Source: an uncultured Candidatus Saccharibacteria bacterium (GTDB lineage Bacteria; Patescibacteriota; Doudnabacteria; UBA920). From it: DNA of 45,372 nucleotides. Position numbers and translations under genes: made by a program. Each line of letters begins with the position of its first letter. The stretch's first letter is position 1. Below are positions 30,875 through 45,372 of this stretch, one piece after another. The notes under the pieces are model-generated. The model was not told where the DNA came from, searched no databases, and worked only from the letters and a program-made list of their open reading frames with translations. Location: assembly GCA_964473815.1 (NCBI GenBank), contig CAYYQK010000003.1, positions 108,966-154,337 on the forward strand, read 5' to 3'.

Positions 30875-30896
30875 TTATCTCGGTAAAATCCCCTCT

Positions 30897-32057
30897 ATGG
30901 ACACAATAAGAATTAAAATTCCTAACGATAAGTTTCTGATTAAAGACCCTGCTTTTTTCAACGAAGTAAAAAGTAGCCATTTTACTAATTCCCCGAGGTT
31001 CAAAGTAGAAAAAACCAACAACGGTTTTAGGAACGAACAAAGTAAAAAAGGTTTTTATGCTCCCAAATTTAAGCTCTTGGATATGCTATTTGGTATTGCA
31101 GATAACCACTTGGTGGTAGAATTTTCAGCACCAAAACTTCTATACGGAACTAACTTAAAAGAGGTAACAGAAGCGGATTTACCCGAAATCATTACTAAAC
31201 TAAAACTATATCTTAAATCCATAGGAATAGGGATATTTGAAAAGAACTTAGAAAACGCCACTGTAACTTTAGTCGCCTACGCAAAGAATATTCCCATTTC
31301 ACATTTAGGCAAAACAACCGAAGTTTTACGAGTGTTATTACCGTTTGATTATCGACCTCGCTCAGAATTTAGGTTTACTTACAAACAAGATAATAGCCAC
31401 GCAGAGCTAAAATACTTCAACAATAATACTCATCTCGTCCTATATGACAAGCTCGCTGAATTGCTGGGTAAGCCCATTACAGACGAAGAAAAAAAGATTG
31501 CTGACTACTACAAAAAAGGAGTTATACCGCCAGAATACGAAAGCATCATCACAGAAACTTTGCGCTTTGAGCTAACATTGCACACTAAATTCGCGGTTAA
31601 GCAAGTTATGGAAAAACATTACGGCCGCAAGAATGACTATACCCTGAGTGAGGTTTTTAAGGACAAAATTAGAGACGAGGCTTTAAAGGCGGAAGTTAGT
31701 AATATTTTCAACCACCCGCTCAAGGAAATCGTATTATTGAGGTCATACGACCAAACCACATTCAATAAAATCATCGACCAGTTATGCAAAAACTTTTCCC
31801 AGTCTGCCGAATTACGGACTATGTTTGACATTATTTATACTCGTGGAATTGGCGAACTGAGAAAAGAAGTAACCAGCAAATCTTCTAAACGCACTTGGTT
31901 CAGGAAGAAGCAAAAGATAAAACAACTACTCAAAGAAATTGACTTACCACCACCGCAAGGCAACATTGATAACGCAAAAGTTATTGAATATATACTGTCT
32001 CAATTTGGCATTGAACCCAATATACGAGAACCGAAACAATTAGAAATCTTTACCTAA
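30897..32057 (+). CDS. Putative replication initiator (Phage_CRI/Rep_trans-like, rolling-circle type)
   Basis: N-terminal DT, EFSAPKLLYG.N, LYDK..E and LRFE motifs recalled from that superfamily; not verified by search. Confidence 0.5.
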   Translation: MDTIRIKIPNDKFLIKDPAFFNEVKSSHFTNSPRFKVEKTNNGFRNEQSKKGFYAPKFKLLDMLFGIADNHLVVEFSAPKLLYGTNLKEVTEADLPEIITKLKLYLKSIGIGIFEKNLENATVTLVAYAKNIPISHLGKTTEVLRVLLPFDYRPRSEFRFTYKQDNSHAELKYFNNNTHLVLYDKLAELLGKPITDEEKKIADYYKKGVIPPEYESIITETLRFELTLHTKFAVKQVMEKHYGRKNDYTLSEVFKDKIRDEALKAEVSNIFNHPLKEIVLLRSYDQTTFNKIIDQLCKNFSQSAELRTMFDIIYTRGIGELRKEVTSKSSKRTWFRKKQKIKQLLKEIDLPPPQGNIDNAKVIEYILSQFGIEPNIREPKQLEIFT

Positions 32058-32226
32058 ATAAGTATGACACTACCACCCTCTACTATGTTACCCTCGCTCA
32101 CCATACAAAAACCTTCAAAAATCACTCCCAAGTATTACCACAATAAGTATGCCAAAAGTGGCACTATTAGATACGGCAATATGTATGACACAGGCTTTGA
32201 AAGACCGCCCTGAATATGTATGACAC
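32057..32226. repeat. Iteron-like direct repeats AATA(A/T)GTATG(A/C)CA
   Basis: Copies at about 32058, 32142, 32178 and 32213; the last two are identical 14-mers aatatgtatgacac. Confidence 0.7.
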
Positions 32227-32265
32227 CTTCCCACTCTAATTAACCCTTAAAAATCTCTAATCACT

Positions 32266-32655
32266 ATGGATACTAATAACCAAACCTACGAAGAAAAAAT
32301 CATATATTCTATCTACGAAGAAACAATCGTCGAAATCTTGGATACCCAATTTGAAACCGAGGCTACGCCACAGCTCATTGAAGATATTACCAACGAACTT
32401 TACGCTCAAGATTATATTTACCCCGCCCTCATAGACTGTGTTCACCACACTCTCGAATACAACGAGTTAATAGAGCGAAACAAAAAAGCCAAAGATAGCA
32501 AACCGCATTACATAGTTAAATATAAAAATCCCAACGCTTATGTTGTGGATTTTACGGAAATAGGTATTTTCTTAACAGAGCAGGATGCAGAAAAATATAT
32601 ACAATTTCAAGACAAAGACGAATTTACTGAATACCTTATTGAGAAAATACAGTAA
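32266..32655 (+). CDS. Acidic hypothetical protein
   Basis: 129-aa ORF ending at a terminator. Confidence 0.7.
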   Translation: MDTNNQTYEEKIIYSIYEETIVEILDTQFETEATPQLIEDITNELYAQDYIYPALIDCVHHTLEYNELIERNKKAKDSKPHYIVKYKNPNAYVVDFTEIGIFLTEQDAEKYIQFQDKDEFTEYLIEKIQ

Positions 32656-32661
32656 AATCTA

Positions 32662-32688
32662 AAAACCCCAGCAACGGTCTGGGGTTTT
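32662..32688. terminator. Bidirectional terminator
   Basis: aaaaccccag/ctggggtttt between convergent genes. Confidence 0.75.
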
Positions 32689-32705
32689 ATTTCAAAAGAG
32701 TAGCC

Positions 32706-32927
32706 TTAAAACTTAAACAAATCTTCGACAGATACGCCTAAAGCTTTGGCGATTTTCTCAACATTTTTAAGCCCGACATTCCTTTCCCCTCTTTCAACTC
32801 CACCCATATAAGTTCTGTCTAAACCAGCCTTATTCGCTAAAGCCATTTGAGAAATATCCCCTTTTTGTAAGCGTATATCTCTTACTCTTTTGCCAAATTT
32901 TATTAGTATTTCGTCGCTTTTATTCAC
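32706..32927 (-). CDS. XRE-family HTH regulator, restriction-modification controller (C protein)-like
   Basis: FGKRVR..R...SQ..LA..AGLDRTY...VERG.RN..L.N...IA.AL.V. Confidence 0.88.
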   Translation of the reverse strand: MNKSDEILIKFGKRVRDIRLQKGDISQMALANKAGLDRTYMGGVERGERNVGLKNVEKIAKALGVSVEDLFKF

Positions 32928-32949
32928 CCTTTAAGGGTAGGCCTTAGAC

Positions 32950-32974
32950 GACTATAAGGCGACGGACTATGAGT
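32950..32974 (-). promoter_or_regulatory. Tandem C-box-like operator
   Basis: Minus strand actcATAGTC-cgtcgcc-ttATAGTC, about 22 nt upstream of the GTG start of the C-like gene. Confidence 0.65.
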
Positions 32975-33053
32975 ATCCTGATATTTATGATATATTATTG
33001 GAAACTACTGATACTTATAAGTATTCAGTAAAATAAGATAATCATATAATTCA

Positions 33054-34028
33054 ATGAAAAAATGTCCCTTTTGTGCAGAGGAGATACAAGAAAGTGCAGT
33101 GGTGTGTAAGCACTGTAAAAGCCCTCTGACCGCAACCTCCCCTGCTGTTGCGACAACAACGCCAACCAAACAACCGACACAGGTAAACTGGAAAAAGATT
33201 GGAAATATTTTTGGCACAATCTTTTTGATAGGTCTTGTCTTGAAGTTTTGGTATATTGGCATACCCGCAGTTGTTGCGTGGTATTTGTTTAAGAAGCGTA
33301 AGAACAAGTTTAGCCAACGCACCAACATAATTGCCACTGCGGTAGTAGCGGTAATCTTTATTGGGGCTGGCATAGCCAACGCTCACGGAAACAGGAAGCC
33401 CGAATTGACCATTACCGAACCGCAAGCCAATGCAAGTGTGCAGGCAAAGAGCATAACAATTAAGGGAAAGGTAAATCCTGCCAGCTCAACTGTGGTGGTT
33501 AATAACACACCTGCACAAGTAGACAGTAGTGGTAACTTCACCTATGACGCACCGCTTGAAAACGAAGCCAACACCATTACGGTTATTGCCACCAACGCTG
33601 GAAAAACTACACCACAAACTTTAACCGTCAGTCGTATTTTTACCCCAGAGGAAATGGCAGAGCGTGAACGGTTAAAGGCAGAAGCGGAAGCAAAGAAGCA
33701 GGCACAATTGGAAGCCCAACAAAAAGCCCAAGCGGAAGCTGACGCAAAGGCAAAGGCTGACCAAGCCGCTTACGAGCGAAGCAAAGCAGGTCAGTTATGT
33801 AAGGCTCACCCTGATTGGGATAAGGAAACCTGCCAAAGAGTTGCAGACCGCAACTACTGGGTAGGTATGACATATGAACAACTTGTCGCTTCATACGGTA
33901 GTAAACCTAACAGTGCCAACCCTTCAAACTATGGTGGTAAAACACAGTGGCAGTGGTGCTGGCACAGTTACAGTCCGTCTTGCTTCTACGACAACAATGA
34001 TGACGGTATAATTGACAGTTACAACTAA
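33054..34028 (+). CDS. Membrane-anchored surface protein: zinc ribbon, TMs, Ig-like domain, Ala/Lys coiled coil, small C-terminal domain
   Basis: CPFC...CKHC, three hydrophobic segments, P.LTITEP...G.F...PL....NTITV.ATN..G, AEAKKQAQ repeats. Confidence 0.8.
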   Translation: MKKCPFCAEEIQESAVVCKHCKSPLTATSPAVATTTPTKQPTQVNWKKIGNIFGTIFLIGLVLKFWYIGIPAVVAWYLFKKRKNKFSQRTNIIATAVVAVIFIGAGIANAHGNRKPELTITEPQANASVQAKSITIKGKVNPASSTVVVNNTPAQVDSSGNFTYDAPLENEANTITVIATNAGKTTPQTLTVSRIFTPEEMAERERLKAEAEAKKQAQLEAQQKAQAEADAKAKADQAAYERSKAGQLCKAHPDWDKETCQRVADRNYWVGMTYEQLVASYGSKPNSANPSNYGGKTQWQWCWHSYSPSCFYDNNDDGIIDSYN

Positions 34029-34032
34029 CCCT

Positions 34033-34323
34033 ATGGCTGAAAAAGAACTAAACCCGCAGGCAGTAAAAGACTGCCCATATTGTGCGGAACATATACAAGC
34101 AGAAGCGATAGTATGTAAGCACTGTGGCTATAATCTCACTACTGGCAAGCCTGTCGAATGGTTGAAGCCCAGCCCACCTACTTCGCCACCCACTCAAAAT
34201 CAAGTTACAGCAAAAAGCGGTATAGGAGACGGGGTTCGGTTAGGATGCGGGATGTTTATTGTCTTACCTATTCTGATAATTATCGGTATAATCATATTTA
34301 TTGCTATTGTCGGTAGCTTCTAA
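34033..34323 (+). CDS. Small zinc-ribbon membrane protein
   Basis: CPYCAE.IQ..A.VCKHCG plus C-terminal TM; start moved to ATG 34033. Confidence 0.75.
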   Translation: MAEKELNPQAVKDCPYCAEHIQAEAIVCKHCGYNLTTGKPVEWLKPSPPTSPPTQNQVTAKSGIGDGVRLGCGMFIVLPILIIIGIIIFIAIVGSF

Positions 34324-34346
34324 TAAAAACAAAAAATAACTTTTTG

Positions 34347-35369
34347 TTATCGCAACAGGAAGTTATTTTTAATTGTATTTTCTAAGGAGTAATTATTAGA
34401 GTGCTTTAGCATACCCAAATATGACTGTACGGTTTGGTAGAAACTATCAAATTCAAGCTCGCCTGCCGTTAATAAATCATCCTTATAAGATAATTTCTTT
34501 AACATCCTGTTTTTGGTCTTTCGTCTTATTCCAATATATTTAGGCAAAATAATGTATCCTAAGAAGTCTATCCCCTGTGTATACTTACGCAGTTCAATTT
34601 TATTAGGATGTAAATAAACCCCTAACCTACCTGATACAAAGACTGAAACCCATTTCAGTATTTCTTCCAAGTAATTTCTATCTTTATGGACAATTGCAAA
34701 ATCATCAGCATAACGAAAGTAATACTTTACCCCAAGTTTATGTTTTACAAACTGGTCTAATTCATTCAGGAAAATGTTGGCAAAGATTTGTGATGTCAGA
34801 TTACCAATAGGAATGCCTTTGCCCTGTGAAAAGCTCCCGAGTATTTCTCGTATCAACCATAGAAATCGCTTATCCTTTATTCTCTTTTCGATAATTTGCA
34901 GAAGCAAGTTATGAGGAACACTGTGAAAAAATTGTTTTATATCACACTTCAAAACATATGTTTGCCGAGAGCCATTCTGACTTTCTTCCCTTAATGCTTT
35001 TCTGAGGTTTTCGACGGCGCGATGCGAACCCTTATCAAGCCTTGATGAGTAAGAATGAAAGATAAAAGTAGGGTCAAAAATTTCATACAATTTAGCAAAG
35101 ACCAAATGGTGAACCAGCCTATCTCTTACAGTAGCTTTGCTTATAATTCTGTGTTTTGGGTCATAGATGTGAAAGGTTGTATACCGCCCGTGTCTGTATG
35201 TTTGATTGACGAGCTGATGATGCAAGTTGAACATATTGTCTTCCAAATATCGTTCAAAGTGCATTACATCACTTTTCGAAATCTTACCGCGCTTAAACTC
35301 ATCCCAAGAAACCAGTATGTTTTCCAAACTAACTAAGAAAGGATAATTAACACTATGAACAACTTGCAT
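34347..35369 (-). CDS. DGR reverse transcriptase
   Basis: DPK.R.I.KA.VRDR.VHH, KCDIKQFF.S, GIPIGNLTSQIFAN, RYADDF, IDFLGY; no internal stops. Confidence 0.96.
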   Translation of the reverse strand: MQVVHSVNYPFLVSLENILVSWDEFKRGKISKSDVMHFERYLEDNMFNLHHQLVNQTYRHGRYTTFHIYDPKHRIISKATVRDRLVHHLVFAKLYEIFDPTFIFHSYSSRLDKGSHRAVENLRKALREESQNGSRQTYVLKCDIKQFFHSVPHNLLLQIIEKRIKDKRFLWLIREILGSFSQGKGIPIGNLTSQIFANIFLNELDQFVKHKLGVKYYFRYADDFAIVHKDRNYLEEILKWVSVFVSGRLGVYLHPNKIELRKYTQGIDFLGYIILPKYIGIRRKTKNRMLKKLSYKDDLLTAGELEFDSFYQTVQSYLGMLKHSNNYSLENTIKNNFLLR

Positions 35370-35720
35370 AATAAAGATTATTTAGACGAAATCCCGATAA
35401 TTAGAAAAGTATACGAACTTTACAAACTATACTACGGTTATTTAGAATTGTTCCCGAAAAAAGACAAATATGCTTTAGGCAGTAAATGTGAATTATACAT
35501 TATCGCCGTCCTCGAGCTCTTGCTATCCGCAGGTAGTCTTCCCAAAGAAAGCAAGGGTGAAGTAATACAACAAGCCAGTGTTAAGTTTGATACGCTAAAA
35601 GTTTTGTTGCGGATGGCCAGAGAGCTTGGGTTATTAGATAACAAGAAGTATATTGCGCTACAAACCTGTATCCAAGAAATAGGCCGTATGCTCGGTGGAT
35701 GGCAACGCTCCTTAAAGTAA
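35355..35720 (+). CDS. avd: DGR accessory variability determinant (Avd, four-helix bundle)
   Basis: FPKKDKYALG, LK.LLR.A.EL, KY.....I.EIGRMLGGW. Confidence 0.9.
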   Translation: MNNLHNKDYLDEIPIIRKVYELYKLYYGYLELFPKKDKYALGSKCELYIIAVLELLLSAGSLPKESKGEVIQQASVKFDTLKVLLRMARELGLLDNKKYIALQTCIQEIGRMLGGWQRSLK

Positions 35721-35751
35721 CAGGAGTTCCTCAATCAAGAGGAACTCCTGT
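35720..35751. other. Perfect 13-bp hairpin just 3' of the TR (minus-strand sense)
   Basis: acaggagttcctc-aatcaa-gaggaactcctgt. Confidence 0.85.
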
Positions 35752-35763
35752 AACCAGACACAA

Positions 35764-35884
35764 CCCGAGAACGACGAGACCACCAGCGTAGTTGTCGTTG
35801 GCATTGTCGAGGTTGATCCTGTTGTCGAAGTTGAGGTTGTCGTCGTTGGCGTTGAAGTAGAGCGAGTTGTCAGACGACTGCCAC
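35764..35884 (-). repeat. DGR template repeat (TR)
   Basis: 121 nt; in the VR frame it has 10 AAY codons and 31 adenines, none at third codon positions. Confidence 0.97.
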
Positions 35885-36141
35885 CACTCAACGAAAATTG
35901 CCGTTTCCCATCCATACCACCAGAACATTAGCCTTACCGCATTTCTACTTATACTCTAATTGTTCTTGTATTTAATCCGCCTATAACAGGCTTAAGAAAC
36001 AGCAAGTAGTGTCTGATGTTTTGGTATACTCTCTTGCAATCCACTCGAACTGCAAAACTCTGATACTTAGAAAACTCAGGATTTCGGTAACGACAATCCG
36101 TAGACGGCCGTGTATTAACCTACTTTCAGAGATATTATACC

Positions 36142-36184
36142 AAAAAGAAAAGCGGGGGCAATGATATTTCACATTGCGCCCCGT
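36142..36184 (-). terminator. Hairpin/terminator downstream of target 1
   Basis: cgggggcaatg...cattgcgccccg with a minus-strand T run. Confidence 0.7.
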
Positions 36185-36267
36185 ACGATTGATAGATTTC
36201 GGAGACCAAAGTCCAAGAGCCAAAGCCCTGAACCAAAAACAAGTTTCCAAAATCCGAAGACCTTTCA

Positions 36268-37260
36268 CTACCCGAGAACGACGAGACCACCAGCGCAGTA
36301 GTCGTAGGCATCGTCGAGGACGATCCCGTAGTCGAAGAGGAGGTTGCCGTCGCGGGCGCCGAAGTAGAGCGAGCAGTCAGACGACTGCCACTGCATTACG
36401 GCAAGGTCGAGCAAGGGCGTTTTGCTGTCCCGAGCTAATACATCTGGAAAAGCCACCATCGCTCCCGCAGCGTCGAAACCGCCAGCAAGCAGGAACTTGT
36501 CAGGCAGGCTCGCCATCTGTTCACGGTCGGCGTGGACGCTGAAACCTTGCAGGCAATTCGGAAAGTAAATCCCGACCACGTTGCCTTGCTTCATCGCTTC
36601 GACGAGCCGTTCGTGACGAGAGCCTTCCACTATAGTGGTCTGACCAGCGAGAGTTCCTTTGCGGTAGTTGTAAAAACTGCGCTTGGGAAACTCTGCCTTG
36701 TAGCTTCGCTCAACGGCGGGCAGGAACACTTCGTCCAATACCCGACCATAGTCGTCAACCTGTGTCTGCGGCAGATAGAACGGCAAATGAACGCCGTTGG
36801 TGATGAGTTGGGTCTTTTCGTCAACCCGCAAACCATCCAAGATTGCCTCGGCACGGTTCTCAAACTCGTCCGCCGAAATCGCCTCTTTCAGGACAAAGCA
36901 ATCAACAATGCGAGCAAGCCGCTCGGCGTAGTTAAGCTTCGTGTGTTTCAGAAAGTAGTTGCGACTTGCGTCCGTGACTGAAGCGGTAAGTGTGCGAGGC
37001 GGGATGCGACGACCGTGCTTGTCGAACCACTTAATAATCGCATCGGTCAAACTAACTTCTTTCTCGCCACGCAGGATAGCTTCAACCGCTTCCATTCCGC
37101 CGAGAATGTTCACAAGGGCTTCGTTCTGCCCAAGGTTCATCTCGCCGTATTTGGGTGTTGCAAGCTGCTTCCCCGCCAGCAGTCCGTCAATGCCTTTACG
37201 CCCATTGAGCAAATCAGCAAGCGTAATAACTTCGTTAATTTTCAAATCTCCGTGTTTCAC
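36268..37260 (-). CDS. DGR target protein 1 (330 aa from GTG 37260), C-terminal variable region
   Basis: Ends in VR1; SD aaggagga 7 nt before the GTG; paralog of target 2. Confidence 0.92.
   Translation of the reverse strand: MKHGDLKINEVITLADLLNGRKGIDGLLAGKQLATPKYGEMNLGQNEALVNILGGMEAVEAILRGEKEVSLTDAIIKWFDKHGRRIPPRTLTASVTDASRNYFLKHTKLNYAERLARIVDCFVLKEAISADEFENRAEAILDGLRVDEKTQLITNGVHLPFYLPQTQVDDYGRVLDEVFLPAVERSYKAEFPKRSFYNYRKGTLAGQTTIVEGSRHERLVEAMKQGNVVGIYFPNCLQGFSVHADREQMASLPDKFLLAGGFDAAGAMVAFPDVLARDSKTPLLDLAVMQWQSSDCSLYFGARDGNLLFDYGIVLDDAYDYCAGGLVVLG
36271..36391 (-). repeat. Variable repeat VR1
   Basis: 17 mismatches to TR, all at TR adenines. Confidence 0.97.
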
Positions 37261-37350
37261 TGTAAAATCCTCCTTCAGGCTATTTGCCCGAATTTTCTGC
37301 AAATTCCACTACCCGTGGATTGGGAACTTTCCGTGATGAAAAGATGTATA

Positions 37351-37379
37351 AATATAGCATATTTTTAGCTTTTAGTCAA
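37351..37379 (-). promoter_or_regulatory. Promoter of target 1
   Basis: TTGACT-N17-TATATT with TG extension. Confidence 0.7.
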
Positions 37380-37410
37380 CCCTTCGACCAAAAGCTATTT
37401 TTGACTTAAT

Positions 37411-37452
37411 AAACAAAAAAACGGGGCGATGAAATTGCACATCGCACCCGTT
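37411..37452 (-). terminator. Hairpin/terminator downstream of target 2
   Basis: aacggggcgatg...catcgcacccgtt with a minus-strand T run; homologous to the target 1 hairpin. Confidence 0.7.
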
Positions 37453-37527
37453 GTAGAAAATTCGAGACCAAAGACCAGAACCCAAAAGCCGAGACAAGCC
37501 CAAGCTTCCGAACTCCAAAATCCGACA

Positions 37528-38463
37528 CTACCCGAGAACGACGAGACCACCAGCGCAGAAGACGCTGGCACCGTCGAGGCCGATCCCGCTGCCGAAGCTG
37601 AGGTAGTCGCCGCTGGCGAAGAAGTAGAGCGAGCGGCCAGACGACTGCCACTGCATTGCGGCAAGGTCGAGAAGCGGAGTAGAGCCGTCCCGAGCAAGAA
37701 CGTCGGGATAAGCAATCATTGCAGCTGCGGCATCAAAGCCACCTGCCAGCAAAAACTGCTCTGGCAAACTATCCATCTGCTCACGGTCGGCATCCACCGA
37801 ATACCCTTGCAGGCAATTCGGGAAGTAAATGCCAACCACTGTGGCTTTCTTCATTGCCTCGACCAACCGCTCGTGGCGAGAACCAGCGACGATTGTCGTT
37901 TGTTCCGCCAAAGAACCTTTACGGTAGTTATTGAATGGTCGGTTACCGCCGAAATGCTCTGCATAGGAGTTATTCACTCCCGTCAGGAACACCTCGTCCA
38001 GAACCTGACCGTAGTCTTCGACATCCATCTGCGGAATGACGAAAGGCAGATAAGTGCCTTTGAGCAGATTGCTCACCCTATCGTCTTCACGGATGCCATC
38101 GATAATTGCTTCGCTCCTCGTCTCAAAGTCCGCCGCCGAAATGTTGTAAAGATACTTTGGCGAGTTGAGATAAGTTTGCAACCGAGCCAGTCGCTGACCG
38201 TAGTCGAGCGTTGGCTGATTGAAGCGATAGTCACGGTCGGGTTTCGTGGTATTAGCCTTCAACCCCCGAGGGCGAATGCGAACACCGTTACGGTTGAACA
38301 GGGACACGTTCTGCGGTCTTGCCTTGAGCAGCAGTTTACTGTCAACGACTTCCGTCGCCAATGTTCCTGCGGCTATGGCTCTGGCGTTGTTTTCGCCAAG
38401 ATTTTTGACCAAAGCGTTAAGGTCGCCTGTTTTCCAGTCCTTAATAAAAAATTCCGATTTCAT
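37528..38463 (-). CDS. DGR target protein 2 (311 aa), C-terminal variable region
   Basis: Ends in VR2; SD aaggagga; paralog of target 1. Confidence 0.93.
   Translation of the reverse strand: MKSEFFIKDWKTGDLNALVKNLGENNARAIAAGTLATEVVDSKLLLKARPQNVSLFNRNGVRIRPRGLKANTTKPDRDYRFNQPTLDYGQRLARLQTYLNSPKYLYNISAADFETRSEAIIDGIREDDRVSNLLKGTYLPFVIPQMDVEDYGQVLDEVFLTGVNNSYAEHFGGNRPFNNYRKGSLAEQTTIVAGSRHERLVEAMKKATVVGIYFPNCLQGYSVDADREQMDSLPEQFLLAGGFDAAAAMIAYPDVLARDGSTPLLDLAAMQWQSSGRSLYFFASGDYLSFGSGIGLDGASVFCAGGLVVLG
37531..37651 (-). repeat. Variable repeat VR2
   Basis: 21 mismatches to TR, all at TR adenines. Confidence 0.97.
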
Positions 38464-38548
38464 TGTCTTCCTCCTTGGGCTTCATTGCCCGAATGGTGAT
38501 TTGCCTCTACCCCGAGGCAGGGACTGCTTGGTATCAAGCAGATGTATA

Positions 38549-38577
38549 AATATAACATATTTGAGCGCATTAGTCAA
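38549..38577 (-). promoter_or_regulatory. Promoter of target 2
   Basis: TTGACT-N17-TATATT with TG extension; same architecture as the target 1 promoter. Confidence 0.7.
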
Positions 38578-38639
38578 TAATTTGACTGTCCCCTAACTTT
38601 CCTATATAATCTTATATAGCTAACTATATACGATTTAAT

Positions 38640-39692
38640 ATGACTAATTACGAAAAGCGACTACTAACTATACCCGCCTCTGTTGCCACCAAAATTGGCC
38701 AAATTGACGAGTTAAAAGGTCAATGGGTGTCTGGGGCGCAATTAAACCCACAGGTGCTGGGACGGCTTAAAAAGTCTGTTCTTGTTACATCCACAGGAGC
38801 TTCTACTCGCATAGAGGGAGCTATATTGTCGGATGAAGATGTAGAAAAATTCGTGAAAGGGATTGGTTTGCAAAAATTCTCCGATAGAGATAAAGGCGAA
38901 GTAAAAGGTTACTACGAATTACTGAACACAGTTTTTGATAACTGGCGGGCTATACGATTAAGCGAAAGCACTGTAAAACACTTCCACAAAGAACTGCTGA
39001 AATATGTAGGCAAAGACGAGAGGCATCGCGGTGAATACAAGATTGCCGACAACACTGTAGAAATGAAAGATGCATCTGGGAAAACAATTGCTGTGATGTT
39101 CAAACCAACACCAGCATACTTAACACCCAAAGAGATGCAAGAACTGGTTGAGTGGACGCAAACAGCAACAAAGGAAAAGAAATACCACCCGCTACTGATA
39201 ATTGCAAACTTCATAGTTGAGTTCTTAAACATCCACCCTTTCACAGACGGGAACGGCAGACTTAGCCGAATTTTAACTAACCTCTTATTGTTAAAAGAGG
39301 GCTATTTATATGCGCCTTATGTGTCGCACGAAAAGATTATTGAAGATAACAAACCAGACTACTATTTAGCATTACGAAAAAGTCAAAAGACCATTAAGAC
39401 TGCAAAGGAGGACATAATCCCGTGGCTTGAATTTTTCTTAGACACATTTTTACAACAATCTCGTATGGCCGTTGAACTCCTATCTGCTGAGAATGTAGAA
39501 AAGTTATTCTCCCCTACCCAGCTTAAAGTGTGGGAGTATTTACAAAAAGTAGATGAGGCAACTCCTATGGAAATTAGCGAACAAATGAGTGTTCCTCGCC
39601 CAACTGTCAATCAAGTGTTAGACAAACTGCTCAAATTAAAACGCATTGAACGGCTTGGTGCGGGTAGAGCAACAAGATACAAAAAACTATAA
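38640..39692 (+). CDS. Fic family protein with a C-terminal winged-helix
   Basis: HPFTDGNGRLSR catalytic motif; N-terminal STRIEG inhibitory-type motif. Confidence 0.93.
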   Translation: MTNYEKRLLTIPASVATKIGQIDELKGQWVSGAQLNPQVLGRLKKSVLVTSTGASTRIEGAILSDEDVEKFVKGIGLQKFSDRDKGEVKGYYELLNTVFDNWRAIRLSESTVKHFHKELLKYVGKDERHRGEYKIADNTVEMKDASGKTIAVMFKPTPAYLTPKEMQELVEWTQTATKEKKYHPLLIIANFIVEFLNIHPFTDGNGRLSRILTNLLLLKEGYLYAPYVSHEKIIEDNKPDYYLALRKSQKTIKTAKEDIIPWLEFFLDTFLQQSRMAVELLSAENVEKLFSPTQLKVWEYLQKVDEATPMEISEQMSVPRPTVNQVLDKLLKLKRIERLGAGRATRYKKL

Positions 39693-39697
39693 AAGTT

Positions 39698-41329
39698 ATG
39701 GTAAAAACTCCCTCTCAAAAACCAAAGCTTGGTGTTGGTTATATTCGGGAAAGCACCGAGGAACAGGACAAGGGCTTTTCCCCTGCCAACCAAAAACGCA
39801 CTATAGAAGATTACGCGGCTAAGAACAATATCAAAATTACGGATTGGTATAAAGACTTAGTAACTGGAACGAAAGCCAGCAAACGCGATGACTTTCAACG
39901 AATGATTACCGATGCAATGGAAAAGAAGTTTGAAGTTATTTTAGTATTCCATACTTCGCGCTTTGCCCGTAATGTATCAGAAGCCCGACAATACAAAGAC
40001 CTACTTCGTAAGAAACAAGGTATTGATGTAATTTTCGTAACTCAACACTTTGGCGATTATGATAGCCCAAGTGGCTTTTTGAACGAAGGCGTAAACGAGT
40101 TGTTTGATGAATACTACTCTAAGCAACTCAGTTTTTGGGTGCGTTCAACACTAATGGAAAAGCGGAAACAAGGAAAACAAATTGGAAGCGTTCCATTGGG
40201 TTATTACAAAAAGAAGCTGGGTTTTGATAAGGATAAAGGTAGAGCAATTTATGCCAAAGAATGGTTAGTGCATCCACAGGAAAGTAAATTGGTGAAAAAG
40301 ATATTTACACTCTACGCTACTGGCAAATATTCTTATGCTGATGTAGCCGCAGAGCTAAATAAAATGGGAGCTAAGACAAAAAGCGGTTATCCTTTCACTT
40401 ATAGTTCAATCAAAGATATTTTGGACAACCAAACTTATCTTGGCAAAGTATTTTCTAAACGGAGAGGTTATCCAACCCACACAGGTGAACATCCAGCTAT
40501 TATTACACAAAAGCTTTTTGATAAGGTGCAAGAAGTTATTGCGCAACGACGAAATACACAGGGTAGACCCGTTGCTCAACATAGGTTTTATCTCTTGCAG
40601 GATTTAATCTACTGCTGGAATTGCCGTAAATATCTAAAGGGTAAGGAAGATAATCCCAATCCTCGCGCTCAGATGTTACCAAAAATGTATTGTGAAACTC
40701 ACCAATATGTAGACGCCAAAGGTGTTAGACACGAAAAGCTAACTTACCACTGCAAGATTGCGAGGGAAACCAAATCGTGCAAACAGCCCATTGTTGCGGC
40801 AGATATAATTGATAAGCAAGTTATCGCTTTAATGGAAGGGTTTAAGCTTCCTAATGATGTGATTGAGATGACAGTCAATAGATTAAAGGTCTTATTCAAG
40901 CACGCTCAGCGTTCAGTAAAAGATTTAGATACTGTTGCAAAATTAGAAGCTAAAAAGAAAAAACTAAACTGGATGTTCGCCAATACCGAAGAACTAACCG
41001 AGGCTGACTATATAAAACAGTTGCGGGAGCTTAACAACGAGCTTCAAAAATATGATGATTTGGGTTTAGTAAAAAATAACTCTGTAACCAAAGAAACCGA
41101 ATACATAAAAAAGACCGAGAAGTTCTTAAAGAATTTCAAACAATTCTGGCGTTCTGACATTGGTGACGAAGAACGCAGGGCTTGGATACAAATGACAATT
41201 AAGCGGGTATGGGTTAAAAATCAGAAAGTTATAGCCATAGAACCGCACGATGATTTTAAGCCTTTATTCGCAGCGCATAGAAAAGTCTTGGTTCAAGCCC
41301 CGTCATCCACCCCACAAAGAACGAACTGA
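39698..41329 (+). CDS. Large serine recombinase A
   Basis: GYIRESTEEQ catalytic motif, SRFARN, recombinase domain, zinc ribbon, coiled coil. Confidence 0.93.
   Translation: MVKTPSQKPKLGVGYIRESTEEQDKGFSPANQKRTIEDYAAKNNIKITDWYKDLVTGTKASKRDDFQRMITDAMEKKFEVILVFHTSRFARNVSEARQYKDLLRKKQGIDVIFVTQHFGDYDSPSGFLNEGVNELFDEYYSKQLSFWVRSTLMEKRKQGKQIGSVPLGYYKKKLGFDKDKGRAIYAKEWLVHPQESKLVKKIFTLYATGKYSYADVAAELNKMGAKTKSGYPFTYSSIKDILDNQTYLGKVFSKRRGYPTHTGEHPAIITQKLFDKVQEVIAQRRNTQGRPVAQHRFYLLQDLIYCWNCRKYLKGKEDNPNPRAQMLPKMYCETHQYVDAKGVRHEKLTYHCKIARETKSCKQPIVAADIIDKQVIALMEGFKLPNDVIEMTVNRLKVLFKHAQRSVKDLDTVAKLEAKKKKLNWMFANTEELTEADYIKQLRELNNELQKYDDLGLVKNNSVTKETEYIKKTEKFLKNFKQFWRSDIGDEERRAWIQMTIKRVWVKNQKVIAIEPHDDFKPLFAAHRKVLVQAPSSTPQRTN
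41290..41314 (+). other. Displaced 3' end of tRNA-His (T arm, acceptor strand, CCA); putative attR of element A and junction of element B
   Basis: gg-TTCAAGC-cccgt-catccac-c-cca; catccac pairs 7/7 with gtggatg at 29009-29015. Confidence 0.85.
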
Positions 41330-42901
41330 TGTTAATTCATCGGTTCGTTCTTTGTTTATAGGGTGTTTCGTTGGTTCTGATTTTTGATATTGCACTTCGA
41401 GCTTTTTATAACCGCTCAGAACTGGCTCAAACCACTTATGCATTTCAATATTCAATGCTCCATCTTTAAGTGTGAATGCCGAACCCATTGCAGAAAATAT
41501 CTCTTTTTTAGTATTGATACTACCACTCGTGAACTTTTCTTTAGCGTGAGTTGCAAAATCAAACACCTTCTCAGTTAGCTCCAACCAGTTTACAGCACGA
41601 ACCTCTGTTTCTTCTCGCAGCTGCTTTAACTGTACTATTTTAGATTGCAATATTTTCTTTTCTGATAAATACTCATCATCAGTAATAAGATCCCGATATC
41701 GCATTTTAGTCAGATTATCTAATTGATTTTGTAACTCCAGCAAGGTGCTGCTCTGTGATTGATGCTTATCACTACGAATAGCGATCTCCTGATCATTCCA
41801 GTTATTCAGAATTTCTACTGCCCAGTCACGAAATTCAGGAAGTATCTGGAGTTGTGACAACTTTACCGTTATCTGATTATCTAATTCAGATTCTGCTATT
41901 ACCTTCTTTTGAGAACAACTCACATACTTCTTTTTACCCGTACAGTGATAATAATCATATCGCTTGTTTTCACCAGTCGATTTGATCTTTTTAAATTTAG
42001 TTTCAGCAGTTACATGGGCGCCGCATTCTCCACATCTAATAATCCCGGAGAAAGGATGTTCATGACGTTTAGGACGTGGTTTACCTTGTTTTTGTCCTAA
42101 TAATTCTTGCACACGTTCATATTGCTGAATGGTTACCATCGGCTCATGAATACCCTGATAAGTATGGCCATTCCATTCGATTATACCAGCGTAGAACTTG
42201 CTATAGAACATACTATATAACCCACTCAAAGATAAAGGCTTTCCACCTCTTAGCTTTCGTTGTATTGTACGGAAGCCCCAGTCATCATTCACAATTTTTA
42301 AAATCTGTCGTACAGAGTAGTTGCCAGTCAGCATTAGCATCCACATCTGCTTTACCATATCAAAGCGTTCAGGATCCTTTACAATCGTCTTTTCCAACTT
42401 GTCATTTAAGTAACCCAAACGAGCAAGGTTAGGTTGCCATCCCTTTTGTAATTTGCTCTCCATTCCACGTAAAGTATTCTTCCTAAGGTCTAAAATAAAC
42501 TGGTTGGCCATACCACTTTCAAGACTGAGCAATAATACACTATCTTCTGGAAGATAAGTACGATCATAAGTCTGAATAGCTTTAATTACACCATTCTGCA
42601 ACATCCATTGGATAGTACCACTATCAACCGGATTGCGTGAAAGACGATTAATTTGCCAGCATAAAATTCCATCAGCTTTACCCTGCTGAATTGCGTTTAA
42701 CATCTCTCCAAATAAAGGACGATCAGATGGCTTTTTGGCTGATTTGGATTCTTTATAAATCCCAACAACTTCTAGCTGTTGATCAGTAGCCAAATTCGTT
42801 AAACGATTTACTTGATCTTCAATGGATTGGATTTGGCGATCTTCGGATTCACTACTCTTTCTAGCGTATAGGAAATATCGCAGAGGTGGTTTTATGGTCA
42901 T
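41303..42901 (-). CDS. Large serine recombinase B
   Basis: YARKSSE...Q..SIEDQ, RL.RN..D, P.GY, C.ECG zinc ribbon; stop codon lies in the tRNA 3' fragment. Confidence 0.93.
   Translation of the reverse strand: MTIKPPLRYFLYARKSSESEDRQIQSIEDQVNRLTNLATDQQLEVVGIYKESKSAKKPSDRPLFGEMLNAIQQGKADGILCWQINRLSRNPVDSGTIQWMLQNGVIKAIQTYDRTYLPEDSVLLLSLESGMANQFILDLRKNTLRGMESKLQKGWQPNLARLGYLNDKLEKTIVKDPERFDMVKQMWMLMLTGNYSVRQILKIVNDDWGFRTIQRKLRGGKPLSLSGLYSMFYSKFYAGIIEWNGHTYQGIHEPMVTIQQYERVQELLGQKQGKPRPKRHEHPFSGIIRCGECGAHVTAETKFKKIKSTGENKRYDYYHCTGKKKYVSCSQKKVIAESELDNQITVKLSQLQILPEFRDWAVEILNNWNDQEIAIRSDKHQSQSSTLLELQNQLDNLTKMRYRDLITDDEYLSEKKILQSKIVQLKQLREETEVRAVNWLELTEKVFDFATHAKEKFTSGSINTKKEIFSAMGSAFTLKDGALNIEMHKWFEPVLSGYKKLEVQYQKSEPTKHPINKERTDELTSVRSLWGG
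41315..41354 (+). terminator. 17-bp hairpin directly after the tRNA CCA
   Basis: caaagaacgaactgatg-ttaatt-catcggttcgttctttg (one G-U pair), followed by ttta. Confidence 0.8.
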
Positions 42902-42905
42902 AATA

Positions 42906-43094
42906 TTATGTTAATTTAATTTCTGATTTTTCTAAAGACCCCTTAGGATAATCAGAACTACTTTCCTTTATTACGACTTGAAACAAACGAATCAGCTTCA
43001 AACCATATTCAAGAGCCTGATCTCGGCTAAGTTCTTTGCCGAACCGATCCATCCATATGCTTTGAAATTTTTTTAATTGTTCGTCTGTTAGCAT
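42906..43094 (-). CDS. Small protein immediately upstream of recombinase B (possible directionality factor)
   Basis: 62 aa, 4 nt upstream of the recombinase start; function inferred from position only. Confidence 0.55.
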   Translation of the reverse strand: MLTDEQLKKFQSIWMDRFGKELSRDQALEYGLKLIRLFQVVIKESSSDYPKGSLEKSEIKLT

Positions 43095-43145
43095 TTAATT
43101 TATTGTTTTTACCAAACGAAAATAGCAGCAATGAGATCATCCACC

Positions 43146-43577
43146 CTAATTCGTGGAAGATTGACCAGATTTTATAGTTTTGTATTCATGAATTGCTTTG
43201 TAAAAGCTACGCAAAATGGACGAATTGTAGCGAGTTAACAATTCTAAAGAATTATTATCTTTCAAAAAGTCCGCCAAAATGGGTATAAAATCTCGCTCAG
43301 CATCCCTTGGATATTTAGGAGTACCGCCAAAGATAAGTAATTCATTCTCAACTTTAAGGAATCGCCGCAATCGCCAATACTGTAATATGATTTGTTCAGC
43401 CAATATATTTTCTAGAACATTTTGTGGATCAAGTTCCGCATAAAGTTGCTTAGCTAATTTGTTGAAAGGTCGCGATTCTTCTGGGCTTACTATTACGCTC
43501 TTAGCTAACAAGCCATGCTTAATAGCATTGAGTTTGCTCAAGCTTGAGTTCTTTGAATTGTTTGTTTCTGTATTCAT
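43146..43577 (-). CDS. Hypothetical protein
   Basis: S..NA.KHGL motif near the N-terminus; helical composition. Confidence 0.7.
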   Translation of the reverse strand: MNTETNNSKNSSLSKLNAIKHGLLAKSVIVSPEESRPFNKLAKQLYAELDPQNVLENILAEQIILQYWRLRRFLKVENELLIFGGTPKYPRDAERDFIPILADFLKDNNSLELLTRYNSSILRSFYKAIHEYKTIKSGQSSTN

Positions 43578-43685
43578 CGTGGAGAGGACCTTTCCCGAAT
43601 TCCGACACCATAGGGTATATATTTTTCTTATTCCCCTTCCTGTTAGGATTTCGGGAAAGGTCTATTAATAATTAGCAGAACCCTT

Positions 43686-44921
43686 TTAGGTTTCCGGGAA
43701 CGCGTATCCCTTAAGCATATCTACGAAATAGTCTTTTAAGATTTTTTGATACGAGTCTTTAATTTTCCAAGTATCAGCATTACCTGATCCATGTTTAAAG
43801 CGATCTATCACACCCAGGGCATTTAAATCTTCCAATATCCGTCTTGTACTACCTGTGGGAAGATTTAATGCAGTTGCTACTTCTTCTGTTTTCCAGACTT
43901 GATCTACTTGATTGCTATCTATTGAGTCAACTCCTAGTGTCGCCTCAATAGTAGTTAAATCAATTTCTTTTTCTGAGACCAATACAGCGAGAACATTGAT
44001 GCGATTCTTGGGTAATGAGTCTAAAGCTATTTTACGTAGAATTATTTTACCTACCTCAGGAACCCCCATCATGACAAATGCCTTGGCGAGCAACGTAAGT
44101 TGCTTTGAGAAGCGTATGGGCATCTCTGCAGCGAAGACGTGGCTAATTTCTCGGTCTTTTGGATCACGTTTTATACCACTTCGGGCCAGGGTAGCAAAAT
44201 CACTTATCTCAACAATTTCATCGATCCACCCGCCATCAAGCTCTGGATAATCCTCAAGGTACTCGAAACCTTCCAAATATTCGTTAAACATTTCTTCTAG
44301 CTCTTGTCGGATAGAAATTATATTGTCTGAATTAGACATACCCTTCTTAGTAGCTGCGCGACGATCAGGCTGGAGCATTCGATACTGAAGAAAACGTTCA
44401 CCTAAAATACTGTACATTCCTTGATATAAATCTATCGCCTCAGTTACACCAGCAATAAAACCTACCTTCCCAATCCAAGAAACCTCCTCCCCTGTTCCAA
44501 ATGATTTAGCATATTGCCCATCATAAACTTCCCGCAATTGTGAAAGTATCTCCTGCCGCGCTGAATCGTATAGTGACAATACTGTCGTAAAGTCTTTGAA
44601 GGTAAAAATAGTCTGCGGATCTATCCGATGTAACAACGAGCTTTGTTTACCAGAGTTTCGTTGACCAGATATTAATGTTTGTGGAGTTAAAGATGACAAA
44701 GGGAAGATTCGCTTTGTTTTACTCAATGCTCGGATCAATTCGCTTTTAAGACCGCTAGGTGGTGAAACAACAAATAACCAAACTGGATCACCAGGAAACT
44801 TATTAGCAATTACGGTAGCGCATACTAAATAAAGTATTCCCTGGTCCTTAACCAAAAAGTTGTTATTTATTTTTTCTTCTAATGCAGTGAGAAGTTCACG
44901 ATTGATTATTGAGGTGGACAT
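43686..44921 (-). CDS. Putative AAA+/MCM-like replication ATPase with a C-terminal winged-helix
   Basis: Walker A-like SPPSGLKS, F.FKDF, LREVYDG, GERF; start codon uncertain. Confidence 0.55.
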   Translation of the reverse strand: MSTSIINRELLTALEEKINNNFLVKDQGILYLVCATVIANKFPGDPVWLFVVSPPSGLKSELIRALSKTKRIFPLSSLTPQTLISGQRNSGKQSSLLHRIDPQTIFTFKDFTTVLSLYDSARQEILSQLREVYDGQYAKSFGTGEEVSWIGKVGFIAGVTEAIDLYQGMYSILGERFLQYRMLQPDRRAATKKGMSNSDNIISIRQELEEMFNEYLEGFEYLEDYPELDGGWIDEIVEISDFATLARSGIKRDPKDREISHVFAAEMPIRFSKQLTLLAKAFVMMGVPEVGKIILRKIALDSLPKNRINVLAVLVSEKEIDLTTIEATLGVDSIDSNQVDQVWKTEEVATALNLPTGSTRRILEDLNALGVIDRFKHGSGNADTWKIKDSYQKILKDYFVDMLKGYAFPET

Positions 44922-45264
44922 ATTTTTTATTTGTTTTTAGGTGATTAATTATTTTGTCTAATAGGCTTGGCCATGTTGTCGGAAATGACACATATATTCC
45001 TGCATTTTGCAGAGAGAATGCAATTACGTTGCGAACATCATCATCAATATCTTTTAGATACCAATTAGATATCAACAATACTTCTTTACTCATCGTAGAC
45101 ACCACACAGATTGCTCCGATTAGGTCTATACGTTTCCAACATACTTTCTCCTTTGATCCTACAGGCTCAAAAGCGAAGCGCAGCTTTGGATCCTTGGAGT
45201 AATAAGATATGGGCCAATCCAAGCAATTTTGTTTTAATTTATCAATACTTTTATACCCGAACAT
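44896..45264 (-). CDS. Hypothetical protein
   Basis: 122-aa ORF overlapping the ATPase start. Confidence 0.55.
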   Translation of the reverse strand: MFGYKSIDKLKQNCLDWPISYYSKDPKLRFAFEPVGSKEKVCWKRIDLIGAICVVSTMSKEVLLISNWYLKDIDDDVRNVIAFSLQNAGIYVSFPTTWPSLLDKIINHLKTNKKYVHLNNQS

Positions 45265-45372
45265 AAATCTACTTTCTCCTGACCAGTAACCACCTCGTTA
45301 ACCGGCCAGGAGATAATAGGTTTAGAGGTGGTATAAAAAACAAAAAACCAGCTTACGCTGGTTAACAAAATG

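Follow-up and report, generated by a model that had tools for sequence, protein, structure and literature searches.

Introduction

The closest known mechanism for one of the two elements described here is the tRNA-dependent lysogeny of actinobacteriophages (Fionnbharth, cluster L and Gaia; Guerrero-Bustamante & Hatfull 2024, PMC10865867). In these systems the attB site lies across a tRNA gene of the host, integration does not rebuild a functional tRNA at attL or attR, and the element, a temperate phage, carries a tRNA that its lysogens need to survive. The phages rely on tyrosine integrases, whose common core is 8-10 bp, and the anticodon loop is the usual mycobacteriophage site (PMC10865867). 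[quoted passage not shown] A further relevant system is the integration-dependent immunity of mycobacteriophage BPs, where attP is within a coding sequence and integration alters the C-terminus of the protein. The altered gene is the repressor and its truncation is functionally proven (PMC4557955).

Large serine integrases (phiC31, Bxb1, A118, SPbeta SprA) combine Resolvase, Recombinase and zinc-ribbon domains and use short palindrome-like att sites in which identity is limited to a few central bases. They catalyse integration between attP and attB, and a directionality factor is required for excision. To our knowledge, those that have been studied target protein-coding genes and have attP beside the integrase gene, not inside it. 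Archaeal tyrosine integrases of the SSV1 type have attP within int and a tRNA target, and integration splits int in two.

The window analyzed here is the whole stretch of DNA of 45,372 nt. In this window one chromosomal tRNA-His gene of a Patescibacteria host is the home of two unrelated elements, A and B, which lie back to back and each have a large serine integrase. It is quite likely that these are two independent serine-integrase elements that each entered the same host tRNA-His by its own integrase. No description of serine integrases with the att designs reported below was found in the literature searched.

Layout of the locus

The region where the two elements meet contains the following features:

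39698-41329, plus strand: large serine integrase A, 543 aa in the integrated state
41301-41310, plus strand: the only host DNA remaining between elements A and B, with CGT completing the T-stem 3' strand and CATCCAC as the acceptor 3' strand
41303-42901, minus strand: large serine integrase B, 532 aa
41315-41354, plus strand: hairpin of 17 bp with a 6-nt loop (arms 41315-41331 and 41338-41354), directly after CCA and followed by TTTGTTTAT

The two ORFs are convergent and overlap by 27 nt (41303-41329), and about 10 nt of host DNA separates the elements. The first-pass annotation had described a 27-nt overlap of recombinases A (plus strand) and B (minus strand) across the tRNA 3' fragment, and the ORF coordinates confirm it. 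The A-type and B-type genes of the related loci L007 and L085 likewise overlap by 27 nt.

Both proteins contain the Resolvase and Recombinase families of Pfam (plus Zn_ribbon_recom), and both are assigned to integrase phrog_95 in PHROGs. The N-terminal resolvase catalytic domain (PF00239) is matched at 3.5e-26 in A and 2e-18 in B, and its catalytic serine is invariant (S19 in the A alignment, S16/S17 in the B alignment). PF07508 occurs in A and B, and PF13408 in B and many homologues of A. Both alignments show conserved cysteine columns, and the sequence of integrase B gives matches to the integrase structures of SPbeta and A118. Both A and B have the catalytic domain, the C-terminal domains and length (about 450-700 aa), and the short att sites with imperfect dyad symmetry of large serine integrases.

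The inverted repeat at 41314-41331 and 41338-41355 is 94% complementary around its 6-nt loop. The hairpin RNA folds at -33.7 kcal/mol (z = -7.7), and none of 200 shuffles folds as well. On the minus strand the hairpin corresponds to codons KERTDELTSVRSL of integrase B and is within the last ~15 codons of the protein. It had been described as a 17-bp hairpin right after CCA that is coding on both strands; the position and length are correct, but only the 5' arm (41315-41329) is coding on both strands, the loop and the 3' arm being part of the B frame only. In the B family the mean hairpin energy is -16.3 kcal/mol versus -5.5 kcal/mol in 600 control windows, none of which reaches the observed median. 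The hairpin is terminator-like on the plus strand for the tRNA and integrase A, and it may act as a terminator. An intrinsic terminator has a stable GC-containing stem with T residues in a row directly behind it. Here the stem is very stable, and the short T-tail TTTGTTTAT is below the terminator-scan rule (5 T in 8). Most B-family relatives have GCCTCTG, then TTTTTGCTTTATTT.

The integrase ORF reads into a tRNA in most members of both families. In 18 of the 22 A-family loci the frame continues as ...KV[LI].Q.P..TP through the tRNA-His 3' part, and in 51 of the 73 B-family loci a complete convergent tRNA abuts the ORF, with 11 isotypes represented. The arrangement is beyond chance because it recurs at this frequency. 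Compact genomes often contain overlapping convergent genes and hairpins used from both sides, and two convergent genes could share a bidirectional terminator with an accidental tRNA-like overlap. This explanation is exceedingly improbable since it is refuted by the family-wide recurrence, and the z score of the hairpin and the compensating change in the two tRNA halves described below also count against it.

The split host tRNA-His

29008-29069, plus strand: 5' part of the split host tRNA-His; the rejoined product is called by ARAGORN

The 5' part is 12.2 kb upstream of the 16-nt 3' part (41299-41314). It contains G-1, the acceptor 5' strand GTGGATG, the D arm, the anticodon arm (GTG), the T-stem 5' strand GCGGG, the T-loop TCCGAAT and then the crossover dinucleotide CC (29068-29069). 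The true tRNA-derived 3' bases are 41299-41314, which comprise the T-stem 3' strand CCCGT, the acceptor strand CATCCAC, C73 and CCA. ARAGORN called no tRNA at 29008-29090 and none at 41290-41314, but positions 29008-29069 joined to 41301-41314 give a 75-nt tRNA-His. The left junction (attL) does not have an acceptor 3' strand. The complement of its GTGGATG is CATCCAC at 41304-41310, not the CAGCCAC of the intact tRNA located between the two halves.

The two halves also change together. The window has GTGGATG/CATCCAC versus GTGGCTG/CAGCCAC in run X3 and L007, so that base 41306 covaries with 29013 between the window and run X3. Since the acceptor strand covaries with the 5' half 12.2 kb upstream, the tRNA 3' fragment is, judged from these sequences, host DNA and the host tRNA-His gene's true 3' end. 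A contig of run X1 has an uninterrupted tRNA-His in which 29069 leads directly into CGTCAGCCACCCCA; by sequence comparison this contig has an empty site. An empty site of exactly this strain was absent from the runs' assembled contigs, which drop rare forms.

Element A and its own tRNA-His

29070-41300, plus strand: element A, 12,231 bp, near-identical in run X3 where the flanks differ
29153-29227, plus strand: complete tRNA-His(GTG) of element A, called by ARAGORN, acceptor GTGGCTG/CAGCCAC

Integrase A lies at the right end of element A. The cargo includes the tRNA-His, Ham1, a rolling-circle Rep-like protein (Phage_CRI), a diversity-generating retroelement (DGR) and a Fic protein. No virion genes were recognised among the scanned ORFs of element A, which gave only a weak match to a rolling-circle Rep.

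The complete tRNA-His begins 83 nt inside the left end and is followed by its own terminator (about 29232-29262). A complete tRNA-His is also found just within the left end of the A-type elements in the five relatives that could be read there (L085, L033, L024, L018 and L015), and further A-family loci have a complete tRNA-His upstream on the same strand. Element A does not rebuild the host tRNA-His and carries a whole tRNA-His gene instead, which the cell may need after integration. The 5' half at 29008-29069 and the complete tRNA-His of A as compensation for the damage had both been overlooked in the first-pass annotation.

Element A is found in at least 20 runs. In run X3 it is almost identical over 12 kb, whereas about 170 nt of the left flank differ there by 11 substitutions and 16 gapped positions. 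This near-identity despite a diverged flank indicates that element A is mobile and recent.

Integration site of element A and the tail of integrase A

29070-29086, plus strand: P' arm of A's attP, GCTTGACCCAACACTTT, which repeats the P arm in inverted form
41282-41298, plus strand: P arm of A's attP, AAAGTCTTGGTTCAAGC, also integrase A codons K-V-L-V-Q-A
41299-41300, plus strand: crossover dinucleotide CC of element A, tRNA positions 61-62

The two arms are inverted around CC, and 29070-29086 matches the reverse complement of 41282-41298 at 15 of 17 bases. The end of the P arm, GGTTCAAGC (41290-41298), resembles a T-loop and had been taken as part of the tRNA end. From its place in the palindrome, it is an att arm of element A and not tRNA. 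The P arm is conserved as DNA in 18 A-family loci, and the P' motif is also found at the left junction of L085, L033, L024, L018 and L015. A central CC accounts for both junctions in the window, L085, L033, L024 and L018. In L009 and L032 the ORF leads into the 5' half of tRNA-His in antisense, which is read as a central GG in the opposite orientation. L008 was grouped with these two loci by its matching ORF tail.

The exact crossover dinucleotides of both A and B are predictions from such alignments. A crossover of A at the shared GGT (29059-29061 and 41290-41292) was considered and rejected. Position 29062, which is C in the window and the canonical T-loop base T in runs X3, X4 and X6, is polymorphic on the host side; the canonical T-loop TTCGAAT is obtained only with host DNA up to 29069; and the centre of the palindrome is CC.

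Under the proposed mechanism, attP of element A (AAAGTCTTGGTTCAAGC-CC-GCTTGACCCAACACTTT) would have recombined with the tRNA at the CC which opens the T-stem 3' strand, at the border of T-loop and T-stem. The insertion would have split the host gene into its present 5' part (29008-29069) and 16-nt 3' part. Since attP is inside the last codons of the integrase A gene, the integrated reading frame runs out of the element, crosses the tRNA remnant and stops in B. The last 9 codons and the stop of integrase A are outside element A, with PSSTP read from the host tRNA and QRTN* from the hairpin arm of B. An excised circle of A would encode a different integrase tail. The predicted protein is 557 aa, ends in ...QARLTQHFPIWKQVRLMGCERFTIE and is 14 aa longer than the integrated form. 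No excised circle (attP) of element A was recovered from the runs' assembled contigs, which drop rare forms. The altered C-termini of the integrases may have a regulatory meaning.

Element B and its hairpin

41309-41314, no strand assigned: zone holding the element B crossover, tRNA positions 71-76, from the B-family cores, the attP forms L154/L144 and L007
41311-45372, minus strand: element B as seen in the window, integrase B and ORFs of 62, 143, 411 and 122 aa
42906-43094, minus strand: 62-aa ORF directly upstream of integrase B, kept beside B-type integrases in L007 and L085 (45 aa; 56-66% identity)

Integrase B ends ...TSVRSLWGG*, and its ...SVRSLWGG* end is antisense to the acceptor stem as stated earlier, with CCA included. 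Read in antisense, the codon TGG corresponds to CCA (41312-41314), GGT GGA to C73 with the acceptor stem, and the stop TGA to 41303-41305. The tryptophan encoded opposite CCA (W530) is invariant in the B family, and the tail after it is read from whichever tRNA adjoins.

The common core of the B family is 4-7 nt, as estimated from elements with both junctions and from the attP forms L154 and L144. Where the element is beside a called tRNA, this core is at tRNA positions 71-74, and the far junction retains the native non-CCA bases together with the host sequence downstream. The attP forms carry inverted arms. L007, the sole relative of tRNA-His type, has a B-type element of 4,072 bp in which the only shared core is CCCA (positions 73-76). 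Its far junction comes from one motif match, and that far end has no fragment of the tRNA body. The extent and crossover of B in the window are placed by analogy with these relatives, with core estimates that differ by about 2 nt between the nearest relative L007 (CCCA) and the more distant ones (positions 71-74). By the same analogy, C73 and CCA of the tRNA 3' end are probably supplied by B, and the hairpin is probably the P' half-site of B.

Element B is a member of a very large integrase family, far bigger than that of A, whose targets are many kinds of tRNA gene. It would thus integrate at the last bases of the tRNA (around positions 71-76), with its integrase gene converging on the tRNA. 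It would leave the tRNA body intact and donate (C73)CCA and the hairpin, which would replace the displaced tRNA terminator.

A different position of the crossover, in the loop of the hairpin, would make the hairpin the recombination site of B, with the 5' arm as the native terminator of the host and the 3' arm from B. The att sites of serine integrases are palindrome-like, and a first contig comparison seemed to lose identity at 41330/41331. The window and L007 differ at 41306 and again from 41315 on, so the apparent break is an alignment effect. As the peptide ...KTEA..ASVR.RW, both arms are preserved next to 11 tRNA isotypes, which is impossible for host DNA, and between B and B' a change in one arm comes with a change in the other. 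The entire hairpin is retained in L154 and L144, which are unintegrated, with the P arm after the TGG core. A boundary of B in the loop was rejected on these grounds and this reading is very unlikely.

The far end of B was not reached, since all contigs carrying its last genes end at the same place (45372). A distal tRNA-His 3' remnant had been proposed as the mark of the far end of B, but a distal repeat of at least 12 nt is absent in the 37 B-family loci scanned. Searches of B-family loci for a distal tRNA copy, or for the junction arm repeated in inverted form without gaps, gave nothing above control, and far ends in this family emerged only by way of the conserved motif ...CGTGGACAACGTTAGAAC. 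Serine integrases leave only a few common bases at their junctions, so the missing remnant does not refute B as an element. A 10-nt repeat, TCATCCACCC at 43137-43146, would give an element of 1.8 kb; it was rejected as a probable chance match (E = 0.17), the 143-aa gene beyond it keeps its order beside B-type integrases, and a matching repeat is absent from relatives.

The 62-aa ORF is a candidate accessory or directionality factor. It has no family match in Pfam or PHROGs, and neither resource gives a function for the neighbour genes of B. The viral contig collection contains no close relative of B, and this B allele was found in run X1 only.

The first-pass annotation had regarded the tRNA 3' fragment and hairpin as a copy carried by B that restores tRNA-His, with A inserted afterwards. 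B-family elements do supply a hairpin and the last tRNA bases, so the supply of the extreme 3' end and of a terminator-like hairpin by B is retained, and near-identical A beside different B-type neighbours fits an order with A last. The rest of the fragment is host DNA rather than a copy from B. The acceptor 3' strand covaries with a host 5' half which that model ignored together with the tRNA-His of A, the bases at 41290-41298 belong to attP of A, and both the short B cores and the absent distal copy disagree with it. The model as a whole is therefore unlikely, and separate integration of A and B is preferred.

Independence of the two elements

The sequence comparisons indicate that A and B are independent elements. 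No B-type gene was found at any of 26 Patescibacteria A-family loci from the genome scan, and B-family loci have intact tRNAs. Past 41314 three different sequences are found across samples, and the divergence begins exactly after this position. Two separate elements with contrasting strategies at one tRNA-His had been suggested before and are supported by these results.

The same 27-nt overlap in the window, L007 and L085 could also be explained by a single composite element with paired serine recombinases, in which the 65 nt are an internal intergenic terminator. The intervening DNA is the end of a tRNA-His whose matching 5' half is outside A, identity is about 99% for A where it is only 71% for B, and the B-type element of L007 has its own second junction at a distance of 4.07 kb. 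B is missing from the other 26 A-family loci, and genes of the B family lie against intact tRNAs of 11 isotypes in the absence of A. A composite element is largely refuted and seems highly improbable. The earlier alternative that A and B always occur together as one unit is likewise contradicted.

Within the two-element explanation, it is plausible that A inserted after B, since A is near-identical across samples with differing B-type neighbours. Later insertion of A into the same gene had been proposed before, and this evidence is short of proof. A B-type element always adjoins A in the three closest A lineages (window, L007 and L085), and some dependence between A and B inside this clade is conceivable. 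The read depth in run X1 is about 8 for the B region and about 12 for A and the host flank.

Comparison with described systems

Element A shares with tRNA-dependent lysogeny an attB that overlaps the host tRNA gene, the lack of a rebuilt functional tRNA and a tRNA carried in the element, here tRNA-His(GTG). It differs in its large serine integrase, its 2-nt core between T-loop and T-stem and its attP inside the integrase gene. Its host also belongs to the Patescibacteria, and the phage nature of A is not established, unlike that of the actinobacteriophage systems. By this analogy A works like tRNA-dependent lysogeny, but it is not a member as defined in PMC10865867 because its recombinase is a serine integrase and its core is 2 nt.

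Both A and B resemble the studied large serine integrases in domain content and att design. They differ from them in having tRNA targets, in using the last codons of the integrase as the P or P' half-site, and in an ORF that crosses the junction. Element B resembles the classical tRNA islands in the working tRNA at its junction and its position immediately 3', but only about 4-7 nt are common, only (N73)CCA is donated and the terminator-like hairpin is within the integrase ORF.

As in BPs, attP is within a coding sequence and integration alters the C-terminus (for A, 543 aa integrated versus 557 aa in the predicted circle). The altered protein in A and B is the integrase itself, in contrast to the BPs repressor. 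The SSV1-type integrases also have the recombination site inside the integrase gene and a tRNA gene as target. In A and B, which have serine integrases, the exchange is confined to the last 3-10 codons and leaves the ORF open.

Significance

Serine integrases are prized tools for genome engineering, and the difficult part is usually to locate their att sites. For the A and B families attP is readable at the 3' end of the integrase gene, with the tRNA T-arm (A) or tRNA positions 71-76 (B) as attB. Many predicted pairs of enzyme and site follow, on highly conserved targets.

The locus also suggests a more speculative function. An attP in the last codons of the integrase could be a state sensor, with tails that tune stability or directionality, and the B family could retarget tRNA isotypes in a modular way. 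This proposal is tentative and rather doubtful at present. If the first part is true, the free and integrated tails would be read from the element, the tRNA or even a neighbouring element. If the second is true, the discriminator and positions 71-72 would switch the isotype while the CCA end and terminator are rewritten.

For the Patescibacteria, the locus indicates that the tRNA-dependent strategy of actinophages with tyrosine integrases is also present with serine integrases. An integrase ORF can encode, in antisense, a terminator-like hairpin for the tRNA beside which its element lands. Two elements can occupy one tRNA gene with about 10 nt of host DNA between them, and the ORF of integrase A is made up of three genetic entities.

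The locus and its two overlapping integrase genes

The window is the end part of a 64-kb contig from a wastewater metagenome (source sample ERZ28615168, run X1). The part left of 29008 is normal chromosomal DNA (histidine kinase, pseudouridine synthase, ABC transporter, DEAD-box helicase and ECF sigma factor). This chromosomal part also contains an XerC/D-like tyrosine recombinase gene (13517-14500) and two tRNA-Arg genes (16894-16970 and 17442-17517), which have no signs of insertion. The features at issue are the following.

Features of the tRNA-His locus
29008-29069: 5' part of a second tRNA-His
39698-41329, plus strand: ORF A, large serine recombinase of element A
41303-42901, minus strand: ORF B, large serine recombinase of element B
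41312-41314: CCA
41315 onward: 17-bp hairpin, directly 3' of CCA (-33.7 kcal/mol, z = -7.7)

By sequence criteria, both proteins are large serine integrases. They are only 20% identical yet align over their full length, and the closest homologues of both are from Patescibacteria. The two ORFs overlap by 27 nt, and the tail of ORF B, SVRSLWGG*, runs onto the strand opposite CCA and the acceptor stem. The overlap, the tRNA end, the tail of B and the hairpin are therefore as the first-pass annotation described them; its statement that the hairpin is coding on both strands holds for the 5' arm only. In the predicted RNA fold, CACCC (41308-41312, the tRNA end) also pairs with GGGTG (41360-41364) beyond the hairpin and lengthens the stem, which may be due to chance.

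A split host tRNA-His

ARAGORN calls a single tRNA-His in the window, at 29153-29227. The acceptor strand of the 5' part at 29008-29069, GTGGATG, is complementary to CATCCAC (41304-41310) rather than to CAGCCAC of the intact gene. When joined, 29008-29069 and 41301-41314 form a canonical 75-nt tRNA-His, and in a contig of the source run 29069 runs directly into CGTCAGCCACCCCA, giving an uninterrupted gene. The interval of 12 kb between the tRNA halves is practically identical in run X3 (locus L007), where the flanks are different: its 5' half has GTGGCTG (29013 A>C) and its 3' piece CAGCCAC, a compensating change across 12 kb. The tRNA piece at 41299-41314 is thus half of a split host gene. 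The earlier interpretation was partly right, in that two elements with contrasting strategies are present, but its account of the tRNA piece gives way to a host half-gene. The T-loop of the split tRNA (29062) is TCCGAAT here and TTCGAAT, with the canonical U55, in X3, X4, X6 and a minor X1 contig; the difference may be a decay mutation in a disabled gene fragment.

Attachment sites of element A

The left junction (attL) of element A (29070-41300) is ...GCGGG TCCGAAT-CC-GCTTGACCCAACACTTT and the right junction (attR) is AAAGTCTTGGTTCAAGC-CC-CGTCATCCACCCCA. The deduced element site (attP) has 17-nt arms, inverted about CC at 15 of 17 positions, and forms a 36-bp palindrome overall. The excised circle would carry the joint ...AAAGTCTTGGTTCAAGC-CC-GCTTGACCCAACACTTT... 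and the empty host site would read ...GCGGGTYCGAAT-CC-CGTCAKCCACCCCA... The same arms-around-CC design explains both junctions in four related loci (L085, L033, L024 and L018). In a few relatives an integrase A-type ORF continues into the tRNA 5' half in antisense, which would be explained if a central GG replaces CC.

Because of these deduced sites, GGTTCAAGC (41290-41298) is an att arm of A that mimics a T-loop, not tRNA, and the host tRNA-His is not rebuilt by the insertion of A. The P arm encodes the integrase A codons KVLVQA; therefore, the reading frame leaves the element, continuing as PSSTP from the tRNA remnant and then QRTN* from the hairpin arm. Integrase A has 543 aa when integrated and a predicted 557 aa in the excised form. 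The pattern ...KV[LI].Q.P..TP is read through the tRNA-His 3' part in 18/22 A-family loci. In L085, L033, L024, L018 and L015 the A-type element has a complete tRNA-His immediately within its left end, and further A-family loci have a complete tRNA-His upstream on the same strand.

Cargo and spread of element A

At least 20 runs, drawn from several studies, contain element A. Its cargo includes Ham1, a Rep-like protein, a Fic protein and a complete diversity-generating retroelement (DGR; 34347-38463).

Components of the DGR
34347-35369, minus strand: reverse transcriptase, within element A
35355-35720, plus strand: bAvd
35752-35884: template repeat
36259-36391 and 37519-37651: two variable repeats, each at the 3' end of one of a pair of paralogous target genes

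The mismatches of the two variable repeats fall at template adenines in 17/22 and 21/24 cases. About 29 positions of VR2 differ between runs while the remainder of A is identical, which suggests ongoing diversification.

The element B family

The integrase B family is very large: of the candidates scored, 4422 match at E <= 1e-20. Of 73 metagenome loci, 51 have a complete tRNA directly adjoining the ORF and convergent with it; these tRNAs belong to the isotypes Asn, Trp, Gln, Ser, His, Glu, Pro, Met, Lys, Ile and Asp. The tRNAs in B-family loci are intact. The W530 codon, the antisense of CCA, is invariant, and the tails past it are antisense tRNA, such as ...WLPGQDSNL... and ...WGARRESNPR... 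Folding of the 45 nt 3' of CCA gives a conserved hairpin, ...ACGAACAGAGGC-loop-GCCTCTGTTTTTGC, with TTTATTT behind it. Its mean energy is -16.3 kcal/mol, compared to -5.5 kcal/mol in 600 same-gene control windows, none of which reaches the observed median. The hairpin comprises the integrase codons KTEA..ASVR and therefore belongs to the element, whichever tRNA adjoins. A simple terminator scan did not call the hairpin of the window.

An unintegrated site, ...GTTCGTGCACGA-TGGCTCCGC-ATCGTGGACAACGTTAGAAC, is seen in two loci (L154 and L144). Elements with both junctions (L093, L135/136, L146/148, L147, L149, L153, L164 and L170) have a common core of only 4-7 nt, corresponding to tRNA positions 71-74 in those beside a called tRNA. 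At the far junction these elements retain native host bases, in many cases lacking CCA, together with host downstream sequence. The nearest relative, L007, has a B-type element of 4,072 bp whose sole shared core is CCCA. Across samples, three different sequences follow 41314, the divergence starting exactly past that base. These cores and this divergence would place the crossover of B within 41309-41314, so B probably donates (C73)CCA along with the hairpin, and the only host DNA left between A and B would be 41301-41310.

The far end of B was not reached, as every contig ends at 45361-45372. In X1 the word depth is ~8 over the B contigs (41416-45372) versus ~12 over the host flank and A (28000-41407); possibly, part of the population is without this B allele. 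The Logan contigs of this run have an 8-nt gap at 41408-41415. In run X8 the right junction of A continues past CCA as GTAAAATTCACGCATTATTATGTGTGTTTT, a sequence distinct from both the window's B and the L007 type. On the antisense strand it reads ...KTHIIMREFYWGG, possibly a third B-like integrase tail. In the B-family locus L134, the 152 nt past the W codon (6015-6166) are repeated inverted, 100% identical, 3.5 kb downstream (9695-9846), which might reflect an invertible segment or arise from misassembly. L146 and L148 have the far-end motif (TTTGCTCCGCAC-TGTGGACGA.GTTTAGAAC) twice, at 429 and 1402, ~1 kb apart and upstream of one integrase, which could reflect tandem elements or a same-site satellite.

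Independence and order of arrival

In a genome scan, 26/26 Patescibacteria A-family loci were without any B-type gene. The window's B allele occurs in the source run only. L007 has the same A next to B', a B-type relative 71% identical to B, and L085 has a 91%-identical A next to B'. Near-identical A beside diverged B-type elements suggests that A was inserted last; sequence alone is no proof of this order, since each of them could be using a half-site that comes in part from the other.

Comparison with known systems

Solirubrobacterales genomes (L034-L084) encode proteins distantly related to integrase A (33-35% identity); there, a convergent tRNA-Asp overlaps the ORF end in 25/51 loci and tails such as ...DGTRTRDL are antisense tRNA. 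The habit of running an integrase ORF into a tRNA thus reaches well beyond Patescibacteria.

Element A follows the logic of tRNA-dependent lysogeny (PMC10865867), but runs it with a serine integrase in place of the tyrosine integrase of that system. Its attP lies inside a gene, as in BPs-type integration-dependent immunity (PMC4557955). Element B works similarly to classical tRNA-targeted islands, but differs in its few-base core and in the terminator-like hairpin inside the integrase ORF. No description of these serine-integrase att designs was found in the literature searched.
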